DNA from: Clostridia bacterium
Lineage (GTDB): Bacteria; Bacillota; Clostridia; UBA1212
DNA length: 64,000 bases
Reading direction: 5' to 3'
NCBI GenBank assembly: GCA_017461545.1
Contig: JAFTXP010000014.1
Location: forward strand, 8,394 to 72,393
In this document: positions 6,049 through 62,323 of the stretch, in pieces
Numbering within the stretch: the stretch's first letter is position 1
Layout: each line of letters opens with the position of its first letter
The notes under the pieces: generated by a model
Told to the model about the DNA's origin: nothing
Databases searched by the model: none
What the model saw: only the letters and a program-made list of their open reading frames with translations
Made by a program: the position numbers and the translations under genes

Positions 6049-7557
6049 ATGAAAAAGAAATTTTTAAAAATATTCTCAACAGCGATATCATTGTTACTTA
6101 TCATGGCGATGATTGCAGGTTGTTCCTCCGAAGGCTCGGATAAAAAGACTCAGGTATTAACTGAGGCAAAACCTGAACCGGAAAATTTAGTTGGCCAGAT
6201 AACATTCTCAGGATATATAACAGATGCCAATGATGAGCATTTGGAAGAATATATTCAAGCTTTTAATTCACAATACAATAATGTTGAAGTTTCCGTAATT
6301 CATGATGAATTTATGGATTCATACTTTGATGATTTGGATAACAAAATTGAAAACGGAACTATCGGTGATGTTTTCATTATTGATGATGAACGTTTGGCAA
6401 AGTATGCTGCTGAAGGTAAAATTTTAGATTTATCACCGTATGTTGAAGAGTATATTGATTTTGATACATACGAAAAGATTAATCCTTCGGAAGAGTGGTA
6501 TAAGGCTGCTTATGAATCATCATTATATGACGGTAAGCTTTACATGGGTGCAACTGAATATTATCATAATTTTATATTTGTCAACTATTCTTTGTTGGAA
6601 GAAGCAGGACTGTCGGTTCCGGGAGATAATTGGACCTGGACTGAATTGAAGTCAGATGCTGAGATAATAAAAGAAACGTCAAATATTGATACACCTATTG
6701 TTATGGATTATACCGACTATGATATATGGGGTGCATTCGCAAGAAGTTGCGGTGTTGAAATTTATGATAATATCGGTACAACTGATGTAAAAGGAATGAA
6801 TTTGACACATCCTGATGTTATTGACGGTTTTGAATATTTAGCTGACGAAATAGTAAATTCAGGTCTTGTTCTTAAGAGTTCAGCCGATTCTATAAATGCA
6901 GAGGATCTTTCAAAATATGCTTTCATTGTTGCAGATCATACAAATCTTGTTCAATGGAGTGAATATTTAACATCTGATAAGTGTGATTTTGAATGGGATT
7001 ATATGCATTTTCCGAAATGGGAAGGCGAAGAAAGAACAGAGGTTGTTACTGAAGCAAACCAGACTGCTACTGAGCCTGCCGGTACAACACGTGTTATAAA
7101 GGACTATTATCAAAGCATAGGAGCTACTACATATGGTTTGGCAGTATATGTTCATGATGATGACGAACATACACAGGAACATTATGATATGTGTGCTCAG
7201 TTTGCATTATACGGTCTTGTAGATAACGGTTCTGAAAGTTATGTAGGAGACGGTGAGATCGTTCCTGCAAACAAGGACATTGCGGAGAAACGTTTTTGGC
7301 GTGATTATCCTGTGAGCGGAAAGAACTCTTCTGTATTTACGCATTATGCTGATCATATAGCCTTAGTCGGGGAAACCGAAGAAGCGGCAGCAGCTTCAAA
7401 AATTGCTGACTTTTCTGCCGTATTGACCTCATTTATGTCTATAGAGGCAGCTGAACAGATTGATGTGGAAAAAATCTTAAATGACTATTTAAAGAAAAAC
7501 ATTCCGTTTGAAGAGTCGTTACAAGATGTACAAGATAATATAAATAAAAATTGGTAA
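6049..7557 (+). CDS. Extracellular solute-binding lipoprotein of the ABC transporter
   Basis: Signal peptide with lipobox LIMAMIAGCSS. 502 aa with sugar-binding-protein-like composition. Lies directly downstream of the two permeases. Confidence 0.75.
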   Translation: MKKKFLKIFSTAISLLLIMAMIAGCSSEGSDKKTQVLTEAKPEPENLVGQITFSGYITDANDEHLEEYIQAFNSQYNNVEVSVIHDEFMDSYFDDLDNKIENGTIGDVFIIDDERLAKYAAEGKILDLSPYVEEYIDFDTYEKINPSEEWYKAAYESSLYDGKLYMGATEYYHNFIFVNYSLLEEAGLSVPGDNWTWTELKSDAEIIKETSNIDTPIVMDYTDYDIWGAFARSCGVEIYDNIGTTDVKGMNLTHPDVIDGFEYLADEIVNSGLVLKSSADSINAEDLSKYAFIVADHTNLVQWSEYLTSDKCDFEWDYMHFPKWEGEERTEVVTEANQTATEPAGTTRVIKDYYQSIGATTYGLAVYVHDDDEHTQEHYDMCAQFALYGLVDNGSESYVGDGEIVPANKDIAEKRFWRDYPVSGKNSSVFTHYADHIALVGETEEAAAASKIADFSAVLTSFMSIEAAEQIDVEKILNDYLKKNIPFEESLQDVQDNINKNW

Positions 7558-9883: not shown

Positions 9884-9974
9884 TTATTTTGTCTATTGTT
9901 TACCTTATTTTATTATTGTATAATCGTAATGATAAACTATCAGTTAAATTAAATCAATGGTAATAGGTGTCGTT

Positions 9975-11513
9975 ATGTCAAAAAAAGGCTATTATTTCGT
10001 CACAAAAAATAATAAGAAAAACTTAATATTAATGCTTATTATTCTTGTGGTTTCATGTGTTATTTTAGCTGTTATAAGTCTTATACCAAACAGGTTTAAA
10101 GATAAGTGGCTTAATACAGATAACGGAGTTGCAAGAAGTTCTATGTTTCCGTTTGTTTATACAACTGATAATTCTCTTTTTATTTTAAATGACCAGCTTG
10201 AAACTGTTGAAATTGATGATTCTGTTTCAGATTGTATTCATGATGTTAATTTTAATATGATATATTATTTACGTGATAATAAATTATACGAATATGATAT
10301 AGATACAAATAAAAGAGTCAGCTTGTCAGAAGGAGTTGCGAATTTCAGACTTTTCAGTGAAAGAACGTCAATTTTATGTACAAATAATGTAAATGATTTA
10401 TATTTGTATCTTTATAAAAATAAAGGTAATATCAAACTTAACAAAAGCTCCCTTGAGAATGTTTCTATTGATTCATTATATGAAGTCGGCACAGGAAACA
10501 TATTATTTTTGGACAATTTTAATTTCGAAAATAATACTGCATCACTAATGTGTTCTGATTTGGATGGAAATGTTAAATGTCTGGCAAACGATATAGATGC
10601 TACAAAAAGCTTTAATATTTCATCAGATGATAAATATGCATTATATTATAAAGGTAAAACTTTGTTTATTACTGACTTAACAGGTAATGTATTACAAACA
10701 TTTGATAATTCTAACATCATTCATCAAAGCGAACAGCATGTATTGACTGAACCGTGTACCACGGTTAACTACTATAGTGAGGGAGTTCCGTTCCTTTATT
10801 TTTTGGTTAACATTTCCGAAAACGGTAATAGCGGTGACTTAGTATACTATACTGAAGAAGGAATTAAAAATATTGACACAGAAATTAAGTCTATAGTTCA
10901 TTTTTATGAAGATGGAAAATTATTGTTATATACAAAAGATGAACACGACGGTACTGTTTCGTTGTATAAGTGTATAAAAGGCGACAATCCTACTAAATTG
11001 ATTACATGTAACAGCAGCGATAATTTCTTTTTTAATGAAGATTCGTCATTCCTGTATATACAGTCTTCCGAAGGTTTTTTGAGAAGAATTAATATTTTTG
11101 ACAATAGTTTAAAGGTTACGGATGTTTCAGAAGGAAGCGGTGTTTTATTCGATTATTTTGGAAAATCTTTTGTCGGATATCATGATTTGGACGGTGAATC
11201 ACAATATCTTATACTAAATACTAATTCAATTGAAAAATTCGCGATGAATGAAATACGGTATTACGGTAAATATTCAAATAAGTTCTTGTTATGCAGAGAA
11301 TATCAACAGGGAAAATTCTCTTTGGATTATACTTCTGACGGTTATACAACAAGAATAGCAAATAATGTTGATAAAAATATTTTCTTTGACAAAGAGTTTA
11401 ACTATGTTATTTTTTCAAACGAAAATAAATTATATATATGGACAGATAACACTGTATCACAGATAAGTGATTGTTCAAATATCAGTGCAGTTTCGGTTAT
11501 TGCAACAAGATAG
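9975..11513 (+). CDS. N-terminally anchored extracellular repeat protein (beta-propeller-like, DUF5050-like)
   Basis: One TM helix (LILMLIILVVSCVILAVISLI), then repeated LY.YD/LYY-type strands. ATG at 9975 has AGGTG 5 nt upstream; the track ORF starts at 9957 with no RBS. Confidence 0.45.
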   Translation: MSKKGYYFVTKNNKKNLILMLIILVVSCVILAVISLIPNRFKDKWLNTDNGVARSSMFPFVYTTDNSLFILNDQLETVEIDDSVSDCIHDVNFNMIYYLRDNKLYEYDIDTNKRVSLSEGVANFRLFSERTSILCTNNVNDLYLYLYKNKGNIKLNKSSLENVSIDSLYEVGTGNILFLDNFNFENNTASLMCSDLDGNVKCLANDIDATKSFNISSDDKYALYYKGKTLFITDLTGNVLQTFDNSNIIHQSEQHVLTEPCTTVNYYSEGVPFLYFLVNISENGNSGDLVYYTEEGIKNIDTEIKSIVHFYEDGKLLLYTKDEHDGTVSLYKCIKGDNPTKLITCNSSDNFFFNEDSSFLYIQSSEGFLRRINIFDNSLKVTDVSEGSGVLFDYFGKSFVGYHDLDGESQYLILNTNSIEKFAMNEIRYYGKYSNKFLLCREYQQGKFSLDYTSDGYTTRIANNVDKNIFFDKEFNYVIFSNENKLYIWTDNTVSQISDCSNISAVSVIATR

Positions 11514-11540: not shown

Positions 11541-12710
11541 ATGCATAATTGTATGTATTTACAAAAAATAAAAAAATATAAAATATATAGTAAAATTTTG
11601 TTTTTGTTATTTCTTTTACTTTTATTATCAACAATGCCGGGATGTACTTATGATGATAATCCTGATATTTCAACATCCGGCATTGTTGATAAGATAGGAG
11701 AAAAGTCAACTGCCCAGAATTCATATAATGCTGTAAAACCGACACCGAACCGTGACGTTGAAAACATACAGAACTCTACTGCCGCTCCGTATGATCCTGT
11801 TATTAATTTTACAGATCCGTATTTTGAAAGTGTAGTTCGTGATTTATTGGGAAAAAGTATTGGTGATATAAAAGTAAGTGATGTCTCATCTATAAAAACT
11901 CTCACTGCGAGAGTAAAAGGAATACGTAATATTAATGATATTGTGTATTTTACTTCTCTCGAAGAATTGGATCTATACGGAAATAAAATCAGCGATATTA
12001 CACCTATAGCACAGTTGGTAAACCTCAGAGTTTTAAATATAGGAAAAAACTACAATACGTTATATTCGTCCAATTCTTCAGGTACAAACGGTATTAATCT
12101 TAATATACTGTCATCATTGCCTTTACTTGAGGAATTATATGCAGAAGATAATCAAATATCAGATTTGTCTTTTGTTGAAGGCTTAAGTCAAATAAAGATT
12201 TTAAATCTATCAAATAATAATTTGACTGATGTGACTGCTTTGTCGAATCTGAAAAATCTGGAGAAATTAATTTTGTTAAATAACAAAATTACTGATCTTG
12301 TATCATTGACAGAGTGTGTAAAACTTAATTATATTGATGTATCGAATAACTATTATGAAGTGATGGACGAACAGACTTTATTTTACACAGGATACGGTAT
12401 AAAAGATTTGTCTTTTGCAGAAAAATTAGCAAATTTGACATACATAAATGTATCTATGAATATGGTCAGCAGTCTGGAGTCTCTTTCTAAACTAAAAGAG
12501 CTCAGAACAATATACGCAGACGATAATTATATAACTGATATCAGTTATTTCAAGGATAATTCAAATATACAGTTATTAAGTGTTAAGCGTAATTATATAA
12601 AGGATTTTAATGTTATTACATCAATGAAAACTTTGACTGAATTGTTTTATATCGGAAATCCGATAGATAATAAAGAACCTGTTTTAAAGTTTGAATCACA
12701 AAATTTTTGA
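11541..12710 (+). CDS. Leucine-rich-repeat (internalin-like) lipoprotein
   Basis: Lipobox LLLLSTMPGC. Multiple 22-aa LRRs (LEELDLYGNKISDITPIAQLVNLRVLNIGKN, LKNLEKLILLNNKITDLVSL). Confidence 0.75.
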   Translation: MHNCMYLQKIKKYKIYSKILFLLFLLLLLSTMPGCTYDDNPDISTSGIVDKIGEKSTAQNSYNAVKPTPNRDVENIQNSTAAPYDPVINFTDPYFESVVRDLLGKSIGDIKVSDVSSIKTLTARVKGIRNINDIVYFTSLEELDLYGNKISDITPIAQLVNLRVLNIGKNYNTLYSSNSSGTNGINLNILSSLPLLEELYAEDNQISDLSFVEGLSQIKILNLSNNNLTDVTALSNLKNLEKLILLNNKITDLVSLTECVKLNYIDVSNNYYEVMDEQTLFYTGYGIKDLSFAEKLANLTYINVSMNMVSSLESLSKLKELRTIYADDNYITDISYFKDNSNIQLLSVKRNYIKDFNVITSMKTLTELFYIGNPIDNKEPVLKFESQNF

Positions 12711-24321: not shown

Positions 24322-24361
24322 CATTTGTTGTTTAATATATTAGAATATCAAGGCTTGTTAT

Positions 24362-24433
24362 TGGGATGTCGCCAAGTGGTAAGGCTCCAGATTTTGATTC
24401 TGGCATCCGCAAGTTCGAGTCTTGCCATCCCAG
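24362..24433 (+). tRNA. tRNA-Gln (anticodon UUG)
   Basis: 72 nt. Acceptor TGGGATG/CATCCCA, anticodon stem CCAGA/TCTGG with loop TTTTGAT, T-loop GTTCGAGTC. CCA is not encoded. Confidence 0.9.
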
Positions 24434-24441
24434 TACATTTT

Positions 24442-24485: not shown

Positions 24486-24585
24486 AAAAGAACACTGTCG
24501 TGGTAATTCTATATCTTCCCCTACTCTGTATTTAAATCTATATTTTTCTAATATATAATTTTGCTAAAGAAAGCGGTGCATTGTG

Positions 24586-25638
24586 ATGAAGAAATTAAAT
24601 ATTTTCCAAAAAATACTTGCTGTTTTGGTTTTATCAGCCATTGCAATTGGTTTTATTGCTTGCGACACCAATATATCTAAATCAGATATTAAAAATCCAC
24701 TTGTTGTAACCCAGGAAAATGAGTCAAACAGTTCGATATCGGACAGTGTTTGGGAACTTGTGTCACATGATGAATCGGTTCTTGAAAAGAAAATGATTGT
24801 AAATAATGGTAGATTATATTCATTTTCTGCAGATTACAGTAATGTTTACGGGGATGCAAATGTTGAATCATTAAATGAAGAATGTATGACTATTTTGGCA
24901 CAATGGGCGCTTTCTGCATTAACATTTGATTTTTCATTACATGTTCCTCTTTTTCAGAAAGAGTTAATCGAAGAAGAAATCTATACAGTATTTGCCGATG
25001 AAGGTTTTTCTCCTGAAGACGGCATAAAAAAGATTTCAAATGATGCATATGAGCTATTTCCTTATGAAACCGTAAGAATTGAATATAAGATTTCTGAAGT
25101 TAAATATAACGACAATAATGTCATAGAAGAACTCATTAATTATAACGGTTTTTTTGAAAAATTTGGTCTTGATATAAATAAACTTAGTGATGTAATTGAA
25201 TATACTATAGCCGATTCTCGCATAATTTTTGATGATTTCTTATATTACAGTTTTTTTACAGACGGAGATGGTTTTGACGGTGACGTAATTATCTATAAAT
25301 ATGACGGTAAATGGTATTTGCATTTTTCAAATCTTGACAACGACCTTTCAATTGATATTTTGCAATCAGAAAAGGAAAAAAATGACGGATTTTTTACATC
25401 TGACAGCACTTGCGGTAAGATTACGAGTATTGATAAAGATTATATTTGCCTTGATGAGAAAAAGTATTTTTCTGTCAAAAATTATAATTCCGACATAAAT
25501 GTTTCTGTGGGAGATTTTGTTGAAATACAACATTATCAGCAAACAATGCAATTCAACAAATTATCTGATGATACAGAATGTACTTTCGATGTTGCCATAA
25601 GCATAGAAAAAAAAGAATGTTATTACCATTACAATTAA
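24586..25638 (+). CDS. Lipoprotein, hypothetical
   Basis: Signal peptide with lipobox AIGFIACDT. No recognisable family. Confidence 0.5.
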   Translation: MKKLNIFQKILAVLVLSAIAIGFIACDTNISKSDIKNPLVVTQENESNSSISDSVWELVSHDESVLEKKMIVNNGRLYSFSADYSNVYGDANVESLNEECMTILAQWALSALTFDFSLHVPLFQKELIEEEIYTVFADEGFSPEDGIKKISNDAYELFPYETVRIEYKISEVKYNDNNVIEELINYNGFFEKFGLDINKLSDVIEYTIADSRIIFDDFLYYSFFTDGDGFDGDVIIYKYDGKWYLHFSNLDNDLSIDILQSEKEKNDGFFTSDSTCGKITSIDKDYICLDEKKYFSVKNYNSDINVSVGDFVEIQHYQQTMQFNKLSDDTECTFDVAISIEKKECYYHYN

Positions 25639-26253: not shown

Positions 26254-27327
26254 ATGAAAAAAATTATTCTTACAGGCGGCGGATCTGCCGGCCATGTTAC
26301 CCCGAATTTGGCATTAAAACCTTATCTTTTGAAAAACAAGTTTGAAATACATTATATCGGCTCTGAATCCGGAATTGAGAAGGATATTATCGAAAAAGAA
26401 GATAATATAAAATATCATCCTGTCCGTACAGGTAAACTGAGAAGATATTTCTCGTGGAAAAATTTTACTGATCCTTTCAGAGTTATCGGCGGATACAGTG
26501 ATGCAAAGAAACTCATGAAAGAAATCAAACCCGATGTTGTTTTTTCAAAAGGCGGTTTTGTTTCAGTTCCGGTTGTTGCAGCGGCTCACAAGTATAAAAT
26601 CCCCGTTATATCTCACGAGTCTGATATGACTCCCGGTTTGGCAAACAAATTATCAAAAAGATTTGCAACAAAATTATGTGTTACATTTCCGGAAGCTCTC
26701 GAACATATTTCAAAAGAAATTGGTGTTTTTACAGGCTCTCCTATAAGGCATGAACTTTACTCAGGAAATGCCCAAAGAGCCCGCAAAAAGTTAAATTTTG
26801 ACTCAAAACCTGTTTTATTAATTATCGGCGGCAGTTTAGGTTCAAAAGTTATAAACGAAGCTGTCCGAAGCAATCTGGAAACCCTATGCAAAAAGTTCAA
26901 TATTATTCATTTATGCGGTAAAAATAACATCGCCGAAATAAACGATTCAGCAATTTCAAGGTCCTATAAACAATTTGAATTTGTAAAAGAAGAGCTTCCG
27001 GATTATTTTGCTTTGTCGGATTATATTATTTCCCGGGCAGGCTCCAATGCAATTCATGAATTTCTTGCATTAAAGAAACCAATGCTTTTGATTCCGCTGT
27101 CAAAGGCGGCGAGCCGCGGAGACCAGATATTAAATGCAAAATCTTTTGAAAAGCGCGGTTATGCAATTGTTTTGGAGGAAGAAAAATTAACCCCCTCTAC
27201 TCTTCTTAAATCGCTGGATTATCTTGAAAAAGACAAAGATAAACTGATTGCTGCAATGTCATCAAATAAAAATGCTGACGGTACCGATTCAATCACAAAA
27301 ATAATCGGTGAGGTTTGCGGGATTTAA
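26254..27327 (+). CDS. murG: UDP-GlcNAc:lipid I N-acetylglucosaminyltransferase MurG
   Basis: [22 protein letters not shown]-terminus and C-terminal RAGSNAIHE...DQILNA pattern. Confidence 0.9.
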
Positions 27328-27386
27328 TCGAATTTTTAAGTTGTTAAGAAATTAAATTTATGTTAAAATACAGTCCGCAACAAAAT

Positions 27387-27468
27387 GCGGATGTGGTGGA
27401 ACTGGCAGACACGCCGGATTTAGGTTCCGGTGCCCGAAAGCGTGCAGGTTCAAGTCCTGTCATCCGCA
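27387..27468 (+). tRNA. tRNA-Leu (anticodon UAG), long variable arm
   Basis: Acceptor GCGGATG/CATCCGC, anticodon stem CCGGA/TCCGG with loop TTTAGGT, T-arm GCAGG-TTCAAGT-CCTGT, discriminator A. Confidence 0.9.
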
Positions 27469-28146
27469 TAAACAAAAAGTCCCTTGTGTCAAAAAAGACA
27501 TGAGGGACTTTTTGTTTTCAGAAATTATAGACAGGACGCAGAACCTGCGCAAGTTCAATAAGTGAGACACCGCGAGGACGAGCAAAGCGAAGTTCAAGCG
27601 GCAATGTCGAACGTATGCAGTGAGCGAATGAAGAAAGTGATTTATATCAAAGTTAATCACTTTCAAAGCGAGTCGCTGTCCTGTCATCCGCATAAACAAA
27701 AAGTCCCTTGTGTCAAAAAAGACATGAGGGACTTTAGTTTTCAGAAATTATAGACAGGACGCAGAACCTGCGCAAGTTCAATAAGTGAGACACCGCGAGG
27801 ACGAGCAAAGCGAAGTTCAAGCGGCAATGTCGAACGTATGCAGCGAGCGAATGAAGAAAGTGATTTATATCAAAGTTAATCACTTTCAAAGCGAGTCGCT
27901 GTCCTGTCATCCGCATAAACAAAAAGTCCCTTGTGTCCAAAAGACATGAGGGACTTTAGTTTGCAGAAATTAAAGACAGGACGCAGAACCTGCGCAAGTT
28001 CAATAAGTGCTATTCCAAGAAGTCGAGTCGAAGACGAAGAATGATTGGCTAAATAGCACGTATGCAGCGAGCGAATGAAGAAAGTGATTTATATCAAAGT
28101 TAATCACTTTCAAAGCGAGTCGCTGTCCTGTCATCCGCATAAAAAG
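27454..28146 (+). repeat. Three tandem direct repeats (224/223/224 bp), each starting with the tRNA-Leu 3' end, plus a fourth solitary copy of that 3' end
   Basis: GTCCTGTCATCCGCATAAA occurs at 27454, 27678, 27901 and 28125. Units 1 and 2 differ at two positions. Unit 3 has an internal 48-nt replacement. Confidence 0.95.
27478..27518 (+). terminator. Terminator after tRNA-Leu (repeated at ~27702 and ~27925)
   Basis: AGTCCCTTGTGTC - AAAAAA - GACATGAGGGACT followed by TTTTGTTTT. Two G-U pairs form only in + strand RNA. Confidence 0.8.
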
Positions 28147-28150
28147 TATA

Positions 28151-28197
28151 AATCCGAACTTTCTTATAGTCGGAGATGGGTTCGGATTAATTTTTTT
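28151..28197 (+). terminator. Rho-independent terminator after the last tRNA-3'-end copy (probable original tRNA-Leu terminator)
   Basis: AATCCGAAC ... GTTCGGATT 9-bp stem followed by AATTTTTTT. Confidence 0.75.
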
Positions 28198-28220
28198 AGA
28201 AAGCAGTTTGCCGTTTTTAT

Positions 28221-28652
28221 TTAACTCTTTTCTATTGTTAGACTTTTCAGTATCGAATCCAGTTCGGGGAATCTTTTTTTTACAATTATAGGAAATCCTT
28301 TTTTATCAAGAAAACAATGTTCTGTCGTTGCGGTTAAAACAGTTTCATCTGTTTTATTATTTAGCATAACATATTTAAAAGAAAGTTTTATTCCAGTATA
28401 TTTTTCAACTTCTATATTTATTCTTATTTCATCATCAAAAGTTGTTGTATGTTTGTACTTGCAATTAACCGAAAGTACAGGAGAAACAATACCGTCAGCT
28501 TCTAATTTTGCATAACCAAATCCATAATGATTTAAAAATGATGTACGAGCTTCCTCCATCCACCTGACATAGTTGGAATGGTGTGTTATTCCCATTTTAT
28601 CAGTTTCATAATAATTAACTCTGTGAATATAATTATATGATTCATTTTCCAT
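28221..28652 (-). CDS. Acyl-CoA/acyl-ACP thioesterase, hotdog fold (YbgC/4HBT family)
   Basis: RVNYYETDKMGITHHSNYVRWMEEAR motif. 143 aa. Confidence 0.8.
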   Translation of the reverse strand: MENESYNYIHRVNYYETDKMGITHHSNYVRWMEEARTSFLNHYGFGYAKLEADGIVSPVLSVNCKYKHTTTFDDEIRINIEVEKYTGIKLSFKYVMLNNKTDETVLTATTEHCFLDKKGFPIIVKKRFPELDSILKSLTIEKS

Positions 28653-61894: not shown

Positions 61895-62242
61895 TTATGC
61901 CCGTATAAGCCCCAAACTGATTTCCAGCGCCTTATCAATACGGTTCATGAAATTGTTATCCAACCTGCAAATATGTTCTTTCAACCTTTTTTTATCAATG
62001 GTTCTGAGCTGTTCCAGAAGAACAACGGAGTCCTTGCTTAAACCGAATTCGTCAGCACAGAGATTAAGATGCGTGGGTAATTTGGATTTATTCATCTGAG
62101 ATGTTACCGCTGCCACGATGATTGTCGGACTGTATTTATTTCCTACATTGTTTTGTATTACAAGTACAGGTCTTACACCGCCCTGTTCGGAACCGACTAC
62201 AGGACTTAAATCTGCATAATAAATATCACCTCGTTGGATCAA
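61895..62242 (-). CDS. mazF: MazF/PemK-family endoribonuclease toxin (EndoA/NdoA-like)
   Basis: [47 protein letters not shown] is near-canonical MazF/EndoA. TTG at 62242 lies 8 nt after AGGAG; the track start at GTG 62251 abuts the RBS. Confidence 0.85.
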
Positions 62243-62323
62243 AATTAACACTCCTTTGTATTCGTATAAGTACGTTTGTACAAAGTAATTTTGTCCGCTA
62301 TTTGATGATTCAATACATTTATT

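Follow-up and report, generated by a model that had tools for sequence, protein, structure and literature searches.

The tRNA-Leu(UAG) gene described here lies on the + strand of a 64-kb stretch of chromosomal DNA from an uncultured member of the Clostridia, hereafter the window, and is followed by an array of short non-coding units. The gene is intact (27387–27468) and was called by both ARAGORN and Rfam, with ends at 27386/7 and 27468/9; its CCA end is not encoded. It is preceded by a sigma-70-type promoter, TTGTTA-17-TAAAAT with TG (27341–27369, + strand). A 19-bp sequence, GTCCTGTCATCCGCATAAA, is present in four exact copies on this same strand, at 27454–27472, 27678–27696, 27901–27919 and 28125–28143. 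The first 15 nt of copy 1 are the 3′ end of the tRNA gene itself, and the repeat as a whole corresponds to the last two T-loop bases, the 3′ strand of the T-stem, the 3′ strand of the acceptor stem, the discriminator and a TAAA trailer. The 15-mer GTCCTGTCATCCGCA occurs exactly four times, always on the + strand (27454, 27678, 27901 and 28125), a count that was matched by none of the shuffled sequences.

These copies delimit every unit of a head-to-tail array, which Tandem Repeats Finder placed at 27454–28143 with a period of 223, 93% matches and a score of 1171; the 3.1 copies reported are those assembled in the window, and long reads are needed for the exact number. The units are 223–224 bp long, in agreement with the modules of about 224 bp, bounded by four direct repeats, that a first-pass annotation of this DNA had recognized behind the tRNA gene. 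All positions and descriptive statements of that annotation were confirmed. The G+C content is 42–48% in the array, compared with mostly about 27–40% in the flanks. The fourth copy of the repeat is solitary, with unrelated sequence after it. As this annotation had also pointed out, a different terminator follows there: the hairpin at 28142–28197, distinct from those of the units, is a bidirectional terminator common to the tRNA side and to a convergent thioesterase gene (28221–28652, − strand). It is probably the original terminator of the tRNA gene.

The 5′ leader of the tRNA gene shows two peculiarities of its own. It carries GTCCGCAACAAAATGCGGA (27374–27391), which could form a hairpin joining the leader to the 5′ strand of the acceptor stem, and a piece of it, TCCGCA..ACAAAA, is similar to the repeat and its trailer (TCCGCATAAACAAAA).

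Anatomy of the units

In all three units the repeat is followed by the hairpin AGTCCCTTGTGTC/GACATGAGGGACT, whose stem of 13–21 bp is preceded by an A-tract and followed by a T-tract; on the + strand this stem contains two G-U pairs side by side. The first-pass annotation had described this hairpin as 13 bp long with two G-U pairs on the + strand; it was found in every unit and extends to 21 bp in unit 1. Hairpin T1 (27470–27517, + strand) has the 21-bp stem, the two G-U pairs, a 5′ A-tract and a 3′ T-tract, and is therefore predicted to be a bidirectional terminator. In the case of T2 (27700–27735, + strand) the T-tract is weakened (TTTAGTTTT), and T3 lies at 27923–27957 on the + strand. The sequence to the right of T1 looks like an inverted duplicate, since diverged, of the sequence to its left.

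About 12 nt past the hairpin lies an inverted copy of the tRNA T-arm. A shorter copy had been described at first; the similarity covers the whole arm, the copy reading GCGCAGGTTCTGCGTCCTGTC on the − strand (27530–27550, and likewise 27753–27773 and 27975–27995), and it is complementary to the T-arm of the tRNA over 10+8 bp. The motif GCAGGTTC-N3-GTCCTGTC is found three times on the − strand (27530–27548, 27753–27771 and 27975–27993), with a chance expectation of 0.

Units 1 and 2 are nearly identical and were designated type A. They differ at just the two places announced by the first-pass annotation, which we located as TTTTTG/TTTAG after the hairpin and CAGTGA/CAGCGA, and AAGTTCAA is present twice in them. 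In unit 3, designated type B and more than a diverged copy, the central ~50 nt (about 28010–28059) are swapped for a different sequence that makes the same hairpin, named P3 below; outside P3 the two types differ by about 2%.

The units do not appear to be coding. Open reading frames (ORFs) in them run through the terminators and have no ribosome-binding sites, as had been stated, and a spurious unit-encoded ORF gave no match in a protein collection. Inside the units no sigma-70-type promoter was found on the + strand, that of the tRNA-Leu gene being the only one in 27300–28260. On the − strand of units 1 and 2, TTGCGC-17-TATAAT (27552–27524 and 27775–27747) has a perfect −10 hexamer. This sequence, the only promoter candidate in the units, shares positions with the inverted T-arm copy and is directed into the bidirectional hairpin. 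The −10 hexamer of this candidate reads TTTAAT in unit 3.

An origin of the units by decay of tandem tRNA-Leu genes was considered and rejected. In local alignments of the unit body to the rest of the tRNA, on both strands, 131–324 of 1000 shuffles scored equally well, so that the similarity is not significant; the units are therefore not decayed duplicates of the tRNA gene. Membership of a known RNA family was rejected as well. Rfam, at gathering thresholds and at E values up to 10, returned the tRNA only, all other matches having E ≥0.02, far below gathering.

The array in other assemblies and in relatives

The same locus was found in three other assemblies. The L005 contig reads tRNA, unit A1, a variant of the B unit (B′) and the start of one more unit. 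In L002, from the same sample as L005, a B unit adjoins the tail, and in L004 an N-gap is followed by A2 and the tail, with no B unit beside the tail. Unit number and order differ between assemblies of the same species. The array is real and its composition varies.

That short-read assembly inflated or invented the array is extremely unlikely. The window does come from a metagenome-assembled genome, and other assemblies break or have an N-gap in the array, but four independent assemblies enter it and cover both of its sides, the contigs of L005 and L002 span more than one unit, and the four distinct variants A1, A2, B and B′ would not fit into fewer than three units. The contigs of L002, L003, L005 and L006 end in the array or at its edges, the edges being where two Logan contigs stop, and L004 bridges it with 100 N (7257–7355). 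Short-read assemblies breaking or gapping at this point, public genomes of the organism will tend to misrepresent or lose the array.

Among the syntenic loci of relatives, identified by their MurG and thioesterase homologues, L016 alone keeps a tRNA-Leu gene at this place, and it has no unit. The relative whose MurG is 78% identical has the same tRNA 3′ end, with a plain terminator next and no unit; its downstream DNA is also different. The remaining, more distant relatives have a different gene order at this locus. An empty-site allele was not recovered among the assemblies and relatives examined.

Predicted fold and compensatory changes

Each unit is predicted to specify a multi-helix module of about 155 nt, in which the rest of the unit joins the next repeat in one fold. 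The fold is closed by helix P1, in which GACAGGAC from the inverted T-arm copy meets GTCCTGTC of the following repeat. Within it come a small hairpin (P2), a long irregular one (P3) and one of 10–12 bp (P4), and a 7-bp stem adjoins P1. Module 1 (type A, 27530–27685, + strand) has P3 at 27558–27616 and P4 at 27633–27664; module 2 (type A, 27753–27908, + strand) differs from it by one change of U-G to C-G. Module 3 (type B, 27975–28132, + strand) is built on the same scaffold, with P3 (28003–28063) replaced and its helices and 3-nt bulge kept. Every module is then followed by a terminator, the third one using the tail hairpin.

The predicted RNA fold of the + strand has an energy of −78.7 kcal/mol (z = −8.0), compared with −67.5 kcal/mol (z = −4.9) for the − strand. 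The + strand fold of one unit contains six G-U pairs, which are mismatches on the opposite strand. When the + strand was folded as DNA, z was −6.4 relative to shuffles.

Four distinct variants (A1, A2, B and B′, the last from another assembly) were aligned with MAFFT. The consensus fold of this alignment has 51 pairs, with 98.5% of the cells paired. Between A and B, eight pairs are doubly changed with pairing kept, all of them in P3, and no pair is broken; since A and B are two lineages, this compensation represents one evolutionary contrast. In control alignments where the partner was slid by 1–3 columns, only 0–1 doubly changed pairs were obtained. The 3-nt bulge and the GA/GAA internal loop of P3 are kept in both types, despite a divergence of about 50% in P3 against about 2% elsewhere in the unit. 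Covariation between homologous units, which had been put forward as a check on the earlier annotation, is visible in this A/B contrast. Eight compensated pairs with none broken are very unlikely without selection on pairing, and from this pattern we infer that the + strand fold of the cassette is under selection for pairing.

This bears on whether the units could be a functionless remnant. A prophage or integrative and conjugative element (ICE) at the tRNA-Leu gene might have been deleted almost completely, leaving its two att-proximal ends to be amplified by slippage or unequal crossing-over, and the fold would then be incidental or a relic, for example of a former terminator or of a retroregulatory structure beside attP. 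Repeats together with a terminator supplied by the insert would suit the attL side of an integrated element, the units have neither promoter nor genes, and the cassette is restricted to one species and absent from a relative. We nevertheless regard such decay as quite unlikely. The eight doubly compensated and zero broken pairs, in units that are otherwise nearly identical, indicate selection on pairing; the z value of −8 on the + strand points the same way, and a closing helix made of the core repeat and a dedicated inverted copy of the T-arm is an improbable product of random deletion.

RNA or single-stranded DNA

Watson-Crick compensation is to be expected of RNA and of single-stranded DNA alike. 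RNA is favoured by the G-U pairs and by the terminators, and the selected fold is most likely that of an RNA produced by read-through from the tRNA promoter. Transcription of the cassettes in this way is putative, as is any function of their RNA.

A folded single-stranded DNA recombination site, as in the attC sites of integrons or the attP hairpin of CTX phage, would account for several of the same features. The inverted T-arm copy would pair with the core within one strand and so restore, in a hairpin, the duplex recognized by a recombinase in the tRNA gene; apart from about 60 bp of cargo, namely the tRNA end and a terminator, each unit would essentially be this site. Each boundary has a core, and 140 nt before the next boundary lies an inverse core, as in cassette arrays; the distal structure is variable, its pairing being conserved and its sequence not; the DNA fold has a z of −6.4; and the missing promoter would be no obstacle. 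However, IntI, a Xer-exploiting phage and an HUH enzyme are all absent from the window, the GTTRRRY/RYYYAAC core boxes are missing, and the fold is multi-branched instead of forming one long bulged hairpin. The six G-U (G-T) pairs per unit favour RNA, and an intrinsic terminator closes each unit on the same strand. On balance, a site acting as folded DNA seems very unlikely.

Integron cassette arrays, and those of CTX phage and other Xer-exploiting elements, are made of small head-to-tail units with a short core, an inverse core inside the unit and a strand-specific fold. The present array resembles them in that a core and an inverse core are joined by a strand-specific fold whose distal part varies while its pairing is kept. 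Core and inverse core meet in P1, and the variable P3 is compensated, features that could be those of an imperfect attC hairpin, but the fold is branched. It differs from them by the lack of an IntI or Xer-dependent phage context and of a GTTRRRY or dif-like core, by its tRNA target, by the branching of the fold and by its host, a member of the Clostridia. Pfam scans found neither intI nor attI beside the array, and R″/R′ boxes (RYYYAAC...GTTRRRY) are absent, the boundaries reading GTCCTGTC... and the inverse core GACAGGAC.

Tandem small RNAs offer another comparison. LhrC1-5 of Listeria are small-RNA genes in tandem, each unit with its own promoter and with no tRNA-derived repeats at its boundaries. 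Here too, nearly identical structured non-coding units of about 200 bp follow one another head to tail, each with an intrinsic terminator; terminators T1–T3, the tail hairpin and a conserved structure with eight compensated pairs were all found. In contrast to LhrC1-5, our units are bounded by tRNA-derived repeats and have no detectable + strand promoter of their own among sigma-70-type sites. Of the two readings offered by the first-pass annotation, that of tRNA-linked small RNAs is borne out as regards a strong, strand-biased structure with eight compensatory pairs, and lacks the + strand sigma-70 promoter within the units, so that independent small-RNA genes are unsupported. With T1 apparently an efficient terminator and such a promoter lacking from the units, transcription of the modules is doubtful.

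Some consequences of read-through can be sketched from the predicted fold. In the minimum-energy fold of a read-through transcript (27387–27745), the T-arm of the tRNA is paired with the anti-T-arm over 10+8 bp, around T1, and the 5′ strand of the acceptor stem is paired with the second copy of the repeat. Such a transcript would misfold the tRNA once polymerase had gone past T1. As a speculation, the cassette could interfere with the folding of tRNA-Leu, or sense it.

Searches for related sequences

The absence of integrase, transposase and reverse transcriptase genes, which had been asserted from the sequence alone, was upheld for the 64-kb window by Pfam searches of all its ORFs of 100 aa or more, 55 in number; the 27 kb to the left of the array and the 36 kb to its right are free of recombinase genes. 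The 55 ORFs are housekeeping genes or unknowns, among them RuvABC, alanine racemase, MurG, a biotin ligase-like protein, PlsX, a fatty-acid synthesis operon, ThrRS, SigA, DnaG and MazF. Four ORFs with no Pfam hit had no PHROG match either.

Copies of the unit elsewhere, which the first-pass annotation had suggested looking for, did not turn up in the searches run. There is no further copy in the rest of the window, and blastn in distant mode found no match in phage and plasmid records. Five unit k-mers had 0 true matches in a viral collection, where a 16-mer gave 87 chance matches, none extending past 25 nt. Scans of genome and metagenome collections gave eight and six chance matches, respectively, two of the eight lying in an Ignavibacteria transporter gene. 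These two concern the 19-mer GCGAATGAAGAAAGTGATT, which occurs by chance in orthologous membrane-transporter genes of two Ignavibacteria genomes (L009, 3638–3656, and L013, 3197–3215) and is unrelated to the unit. All k-mer scans required exact 16- to 34-mers and so miss diverged relatives; within that range, they weakly suggest that the unit is an orphan, seen in one uncultured species. No repeat of the 3′ end of the tRNA-Gln gene, which would be the sign of a second such locus, was found in the window, and no description of a comparable array was found in the literature. The units are not miniature inverted-repeat elements (MITEs) either: the only inverted pair is 8 bp long and internal to the unit, the boundary repeat is 19 bp, and dispersed copies are missing from the 64 kb.

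Origin of the array

Direct repeats of a tRNA 3′ end are a known footprint of site-specific integration (PMC9897764), and tRNA gene fragments are known as products of the integration of elements (PMC9897764; PMC5704250). However the array is parsed, the solitary extra copy of the repeat leads back to a single-unit ancestor made of the tRNA gene, a 205-bp insert, the 19-bp repeat and the old downstream sequence. Plain tandem duplication or slippage leaves no solitary extra repeat, so this arrangement is a signature of att-type insertion.

The scenario that we prefer, tentatively and at somewhat less than an even chance, begins with a single att-type insertion, that of a structured cassette without coding sequence; recombination would then have enlarged and shrunk the array, and the cassette would most likely be expressed as read-through RNA. 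A 205-bp non-coding cassette would have entered the 3′ end of the tRNA-Leu(UAG) gene by att-type (site-specific) recombination, duplicating the 19-bp core, giving the tRNA a replacement 3′ end together with the terminator of the cassette, and pushing the old 3′ end and the old terminator downstream. The single-unit locus would then have expanded and contracted, its units swapping parts, by unequal crossing-over, gene conversion and possibly further integrations, with a strain-variable array of A-type and B-type units as the outcome. Each cassette would specify the ~155-nt + strand fold in which P1 is made by the inverted T-arm copy and the core repeat, and in which P3 would be free in sequence and constrained in pairing. 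Transcription reading through from the strong tRNA promoter would yield the RNA, whose end would be set by the next unit's terminator. An excised circle would show the junction …GAGTCGCT-GTCCTGTCATCCGCATAAA-CAAAAAG…, and an empty site would read tRNA, then directly AAGTATAAATCC. The recombination mechanism is presumed, and the recombinase would act from elsewhere or would since have been lost. Against this account stand the lack of a recombinase in the 64 kb, of any other copy of the unit in the searches run and of a recovered empty site.

That P3 has diverged by about 50% and the rest of the unit by about 2% calls for a diverged donor that we have not seen or for strong local homogenisation. 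By suggesting a diverged donor, this contrast keeps alive the reading in which the cassettes belong to a mobile family. Here the 224-bp unit would be a complete integrase-less element. A recombinase with its gene elsewhere in the genome, in a phage or in an ICE would cut it out and insert it again at the tRNA-Leu core; successive integrations would lengthen the array by accretion, and A and B would be separate arrivals from a wider family. The A/B mosaic, with its compensated P3, is easier to understand as the arrival of a different family member, and conserved flanks around a variable distal hairpin are expected from constraint on a recombination site. The att-like repeats bounding every unit and the varying order of units among assemblies are also in line with active mobility. 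Yet there is no recombinase in 64 kb, the searches run found the unit nowhere else, a circle of 224 bp could neither replicate nor be transferred by itself, and homologous unequal crossing-over between units sharing at least 84 identical bases can yield all the polymorphism seen. We consider ongoing mobility unlikely. The integrase-less mobilisable modules of the first-pass annotation are thereby left with their att-type repeat geometry and with a unit composition that varies among assemblies, and are short of a recombinase in the window and of a second locus or genome with the unit. This reading and that of small RNAs are not mutually exclusive.

By analogy, both aspects could be combined. 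The units may be complete minimal gene-less integrative cassettes whose folded + strand (single-stranded DNA or RNA) shows the tRNA-derived core in a helix with the inverted T-arm copy. This would amount to folded-substrate recombination aimed at a tRNA gene, with the recombinase encoded elsewhere and P3 marking family members. The logic would be that of integron attC and CTX attP, with unrelated sequence and a host among the Clostridia. We hold this combination to be distinctly unlikely.

Under the preferred scenario of a single insertion followed by recombination, the closest parallels are elements that accrete at tRNA genes. CIMEs (cis-mobilizable elements) are integrase-less units bounded by att sites that are arrayed by accretion (PMC5704250). 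As in CIMEs and in accretion at tRNA genes generally, the direct repeats here are the 3′ end of the target tRNA, the intact tRNA is at one end of a tandem array and the displaced 3′ end at the other, and integrase is absent. The target gene is restored, tRNA-Leu being intact, and all four 19-bp copies are exactly identical to its 3′ end. Known CIMEs have arisen by decay of ICEs or IMEs, measure kilobases, retain some genes and lie beside a functional relative or share sites with one, whereas the unit here is 224 bp long and gene-less, with no related autonomous element seen and no second locus found to carry it. No autonomous element or matching integrase is encoded by the 55 ORFs of the window, and the units show no residual ICE/IME genes or modules, no credible ORF and no phage or plasmid similarity. 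The array is also comparable to the tRNA fragments left by integrated elements, where a partial 3′ copy of a tRNA lies downstream of the intact gene (PMC9897764), with the difference that four copies are found in 700 bp, spaced by a structured non-coding module and not by an island or prophage. The locus is best regarded as a miniature form of att-bounded tandem elements, devoid of genes and with a selected structure, and it falls outside every family tested.

Should the cassettes prove mobile, no smaller integrative units would have been described at a tRNA gene, and att-type recombination could spread structure that is purely non-coding. Should they instead be RNAs, they would represent a new orphan structured RNA with a closing helix built from, and complementary to, the T-arm of the neighbouring tRNA, which would suggest cross-talk with the folding or processing of tRNA-Leu. 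The locus is compact (~700 bp), and the reach of either reading is limited to one uncultured species.

Other features of the window

Three further loci of the window were recorded. A 351-aa ORF (24583–25638, + strand) beside the tRNA-Gln gene (24361–24434) has no Pfam or PHROG match; a relative with 87% MurG identity has two different small ORFs in that slot (L015, 1373–2160), so that the position next to tRNA-Gln appears to be a variable spot. A 518-aa ORF (9957–11513, + strand), equally devoid of Pfam and PHROG matches, adjoins a gene for a leucine-rich-repeat protein (11541–12710). Finally, a MazF/PemK-type toxin gene (61895–62251, − strand; Pfam E = 2e-35) lies amid housekeeping genes.
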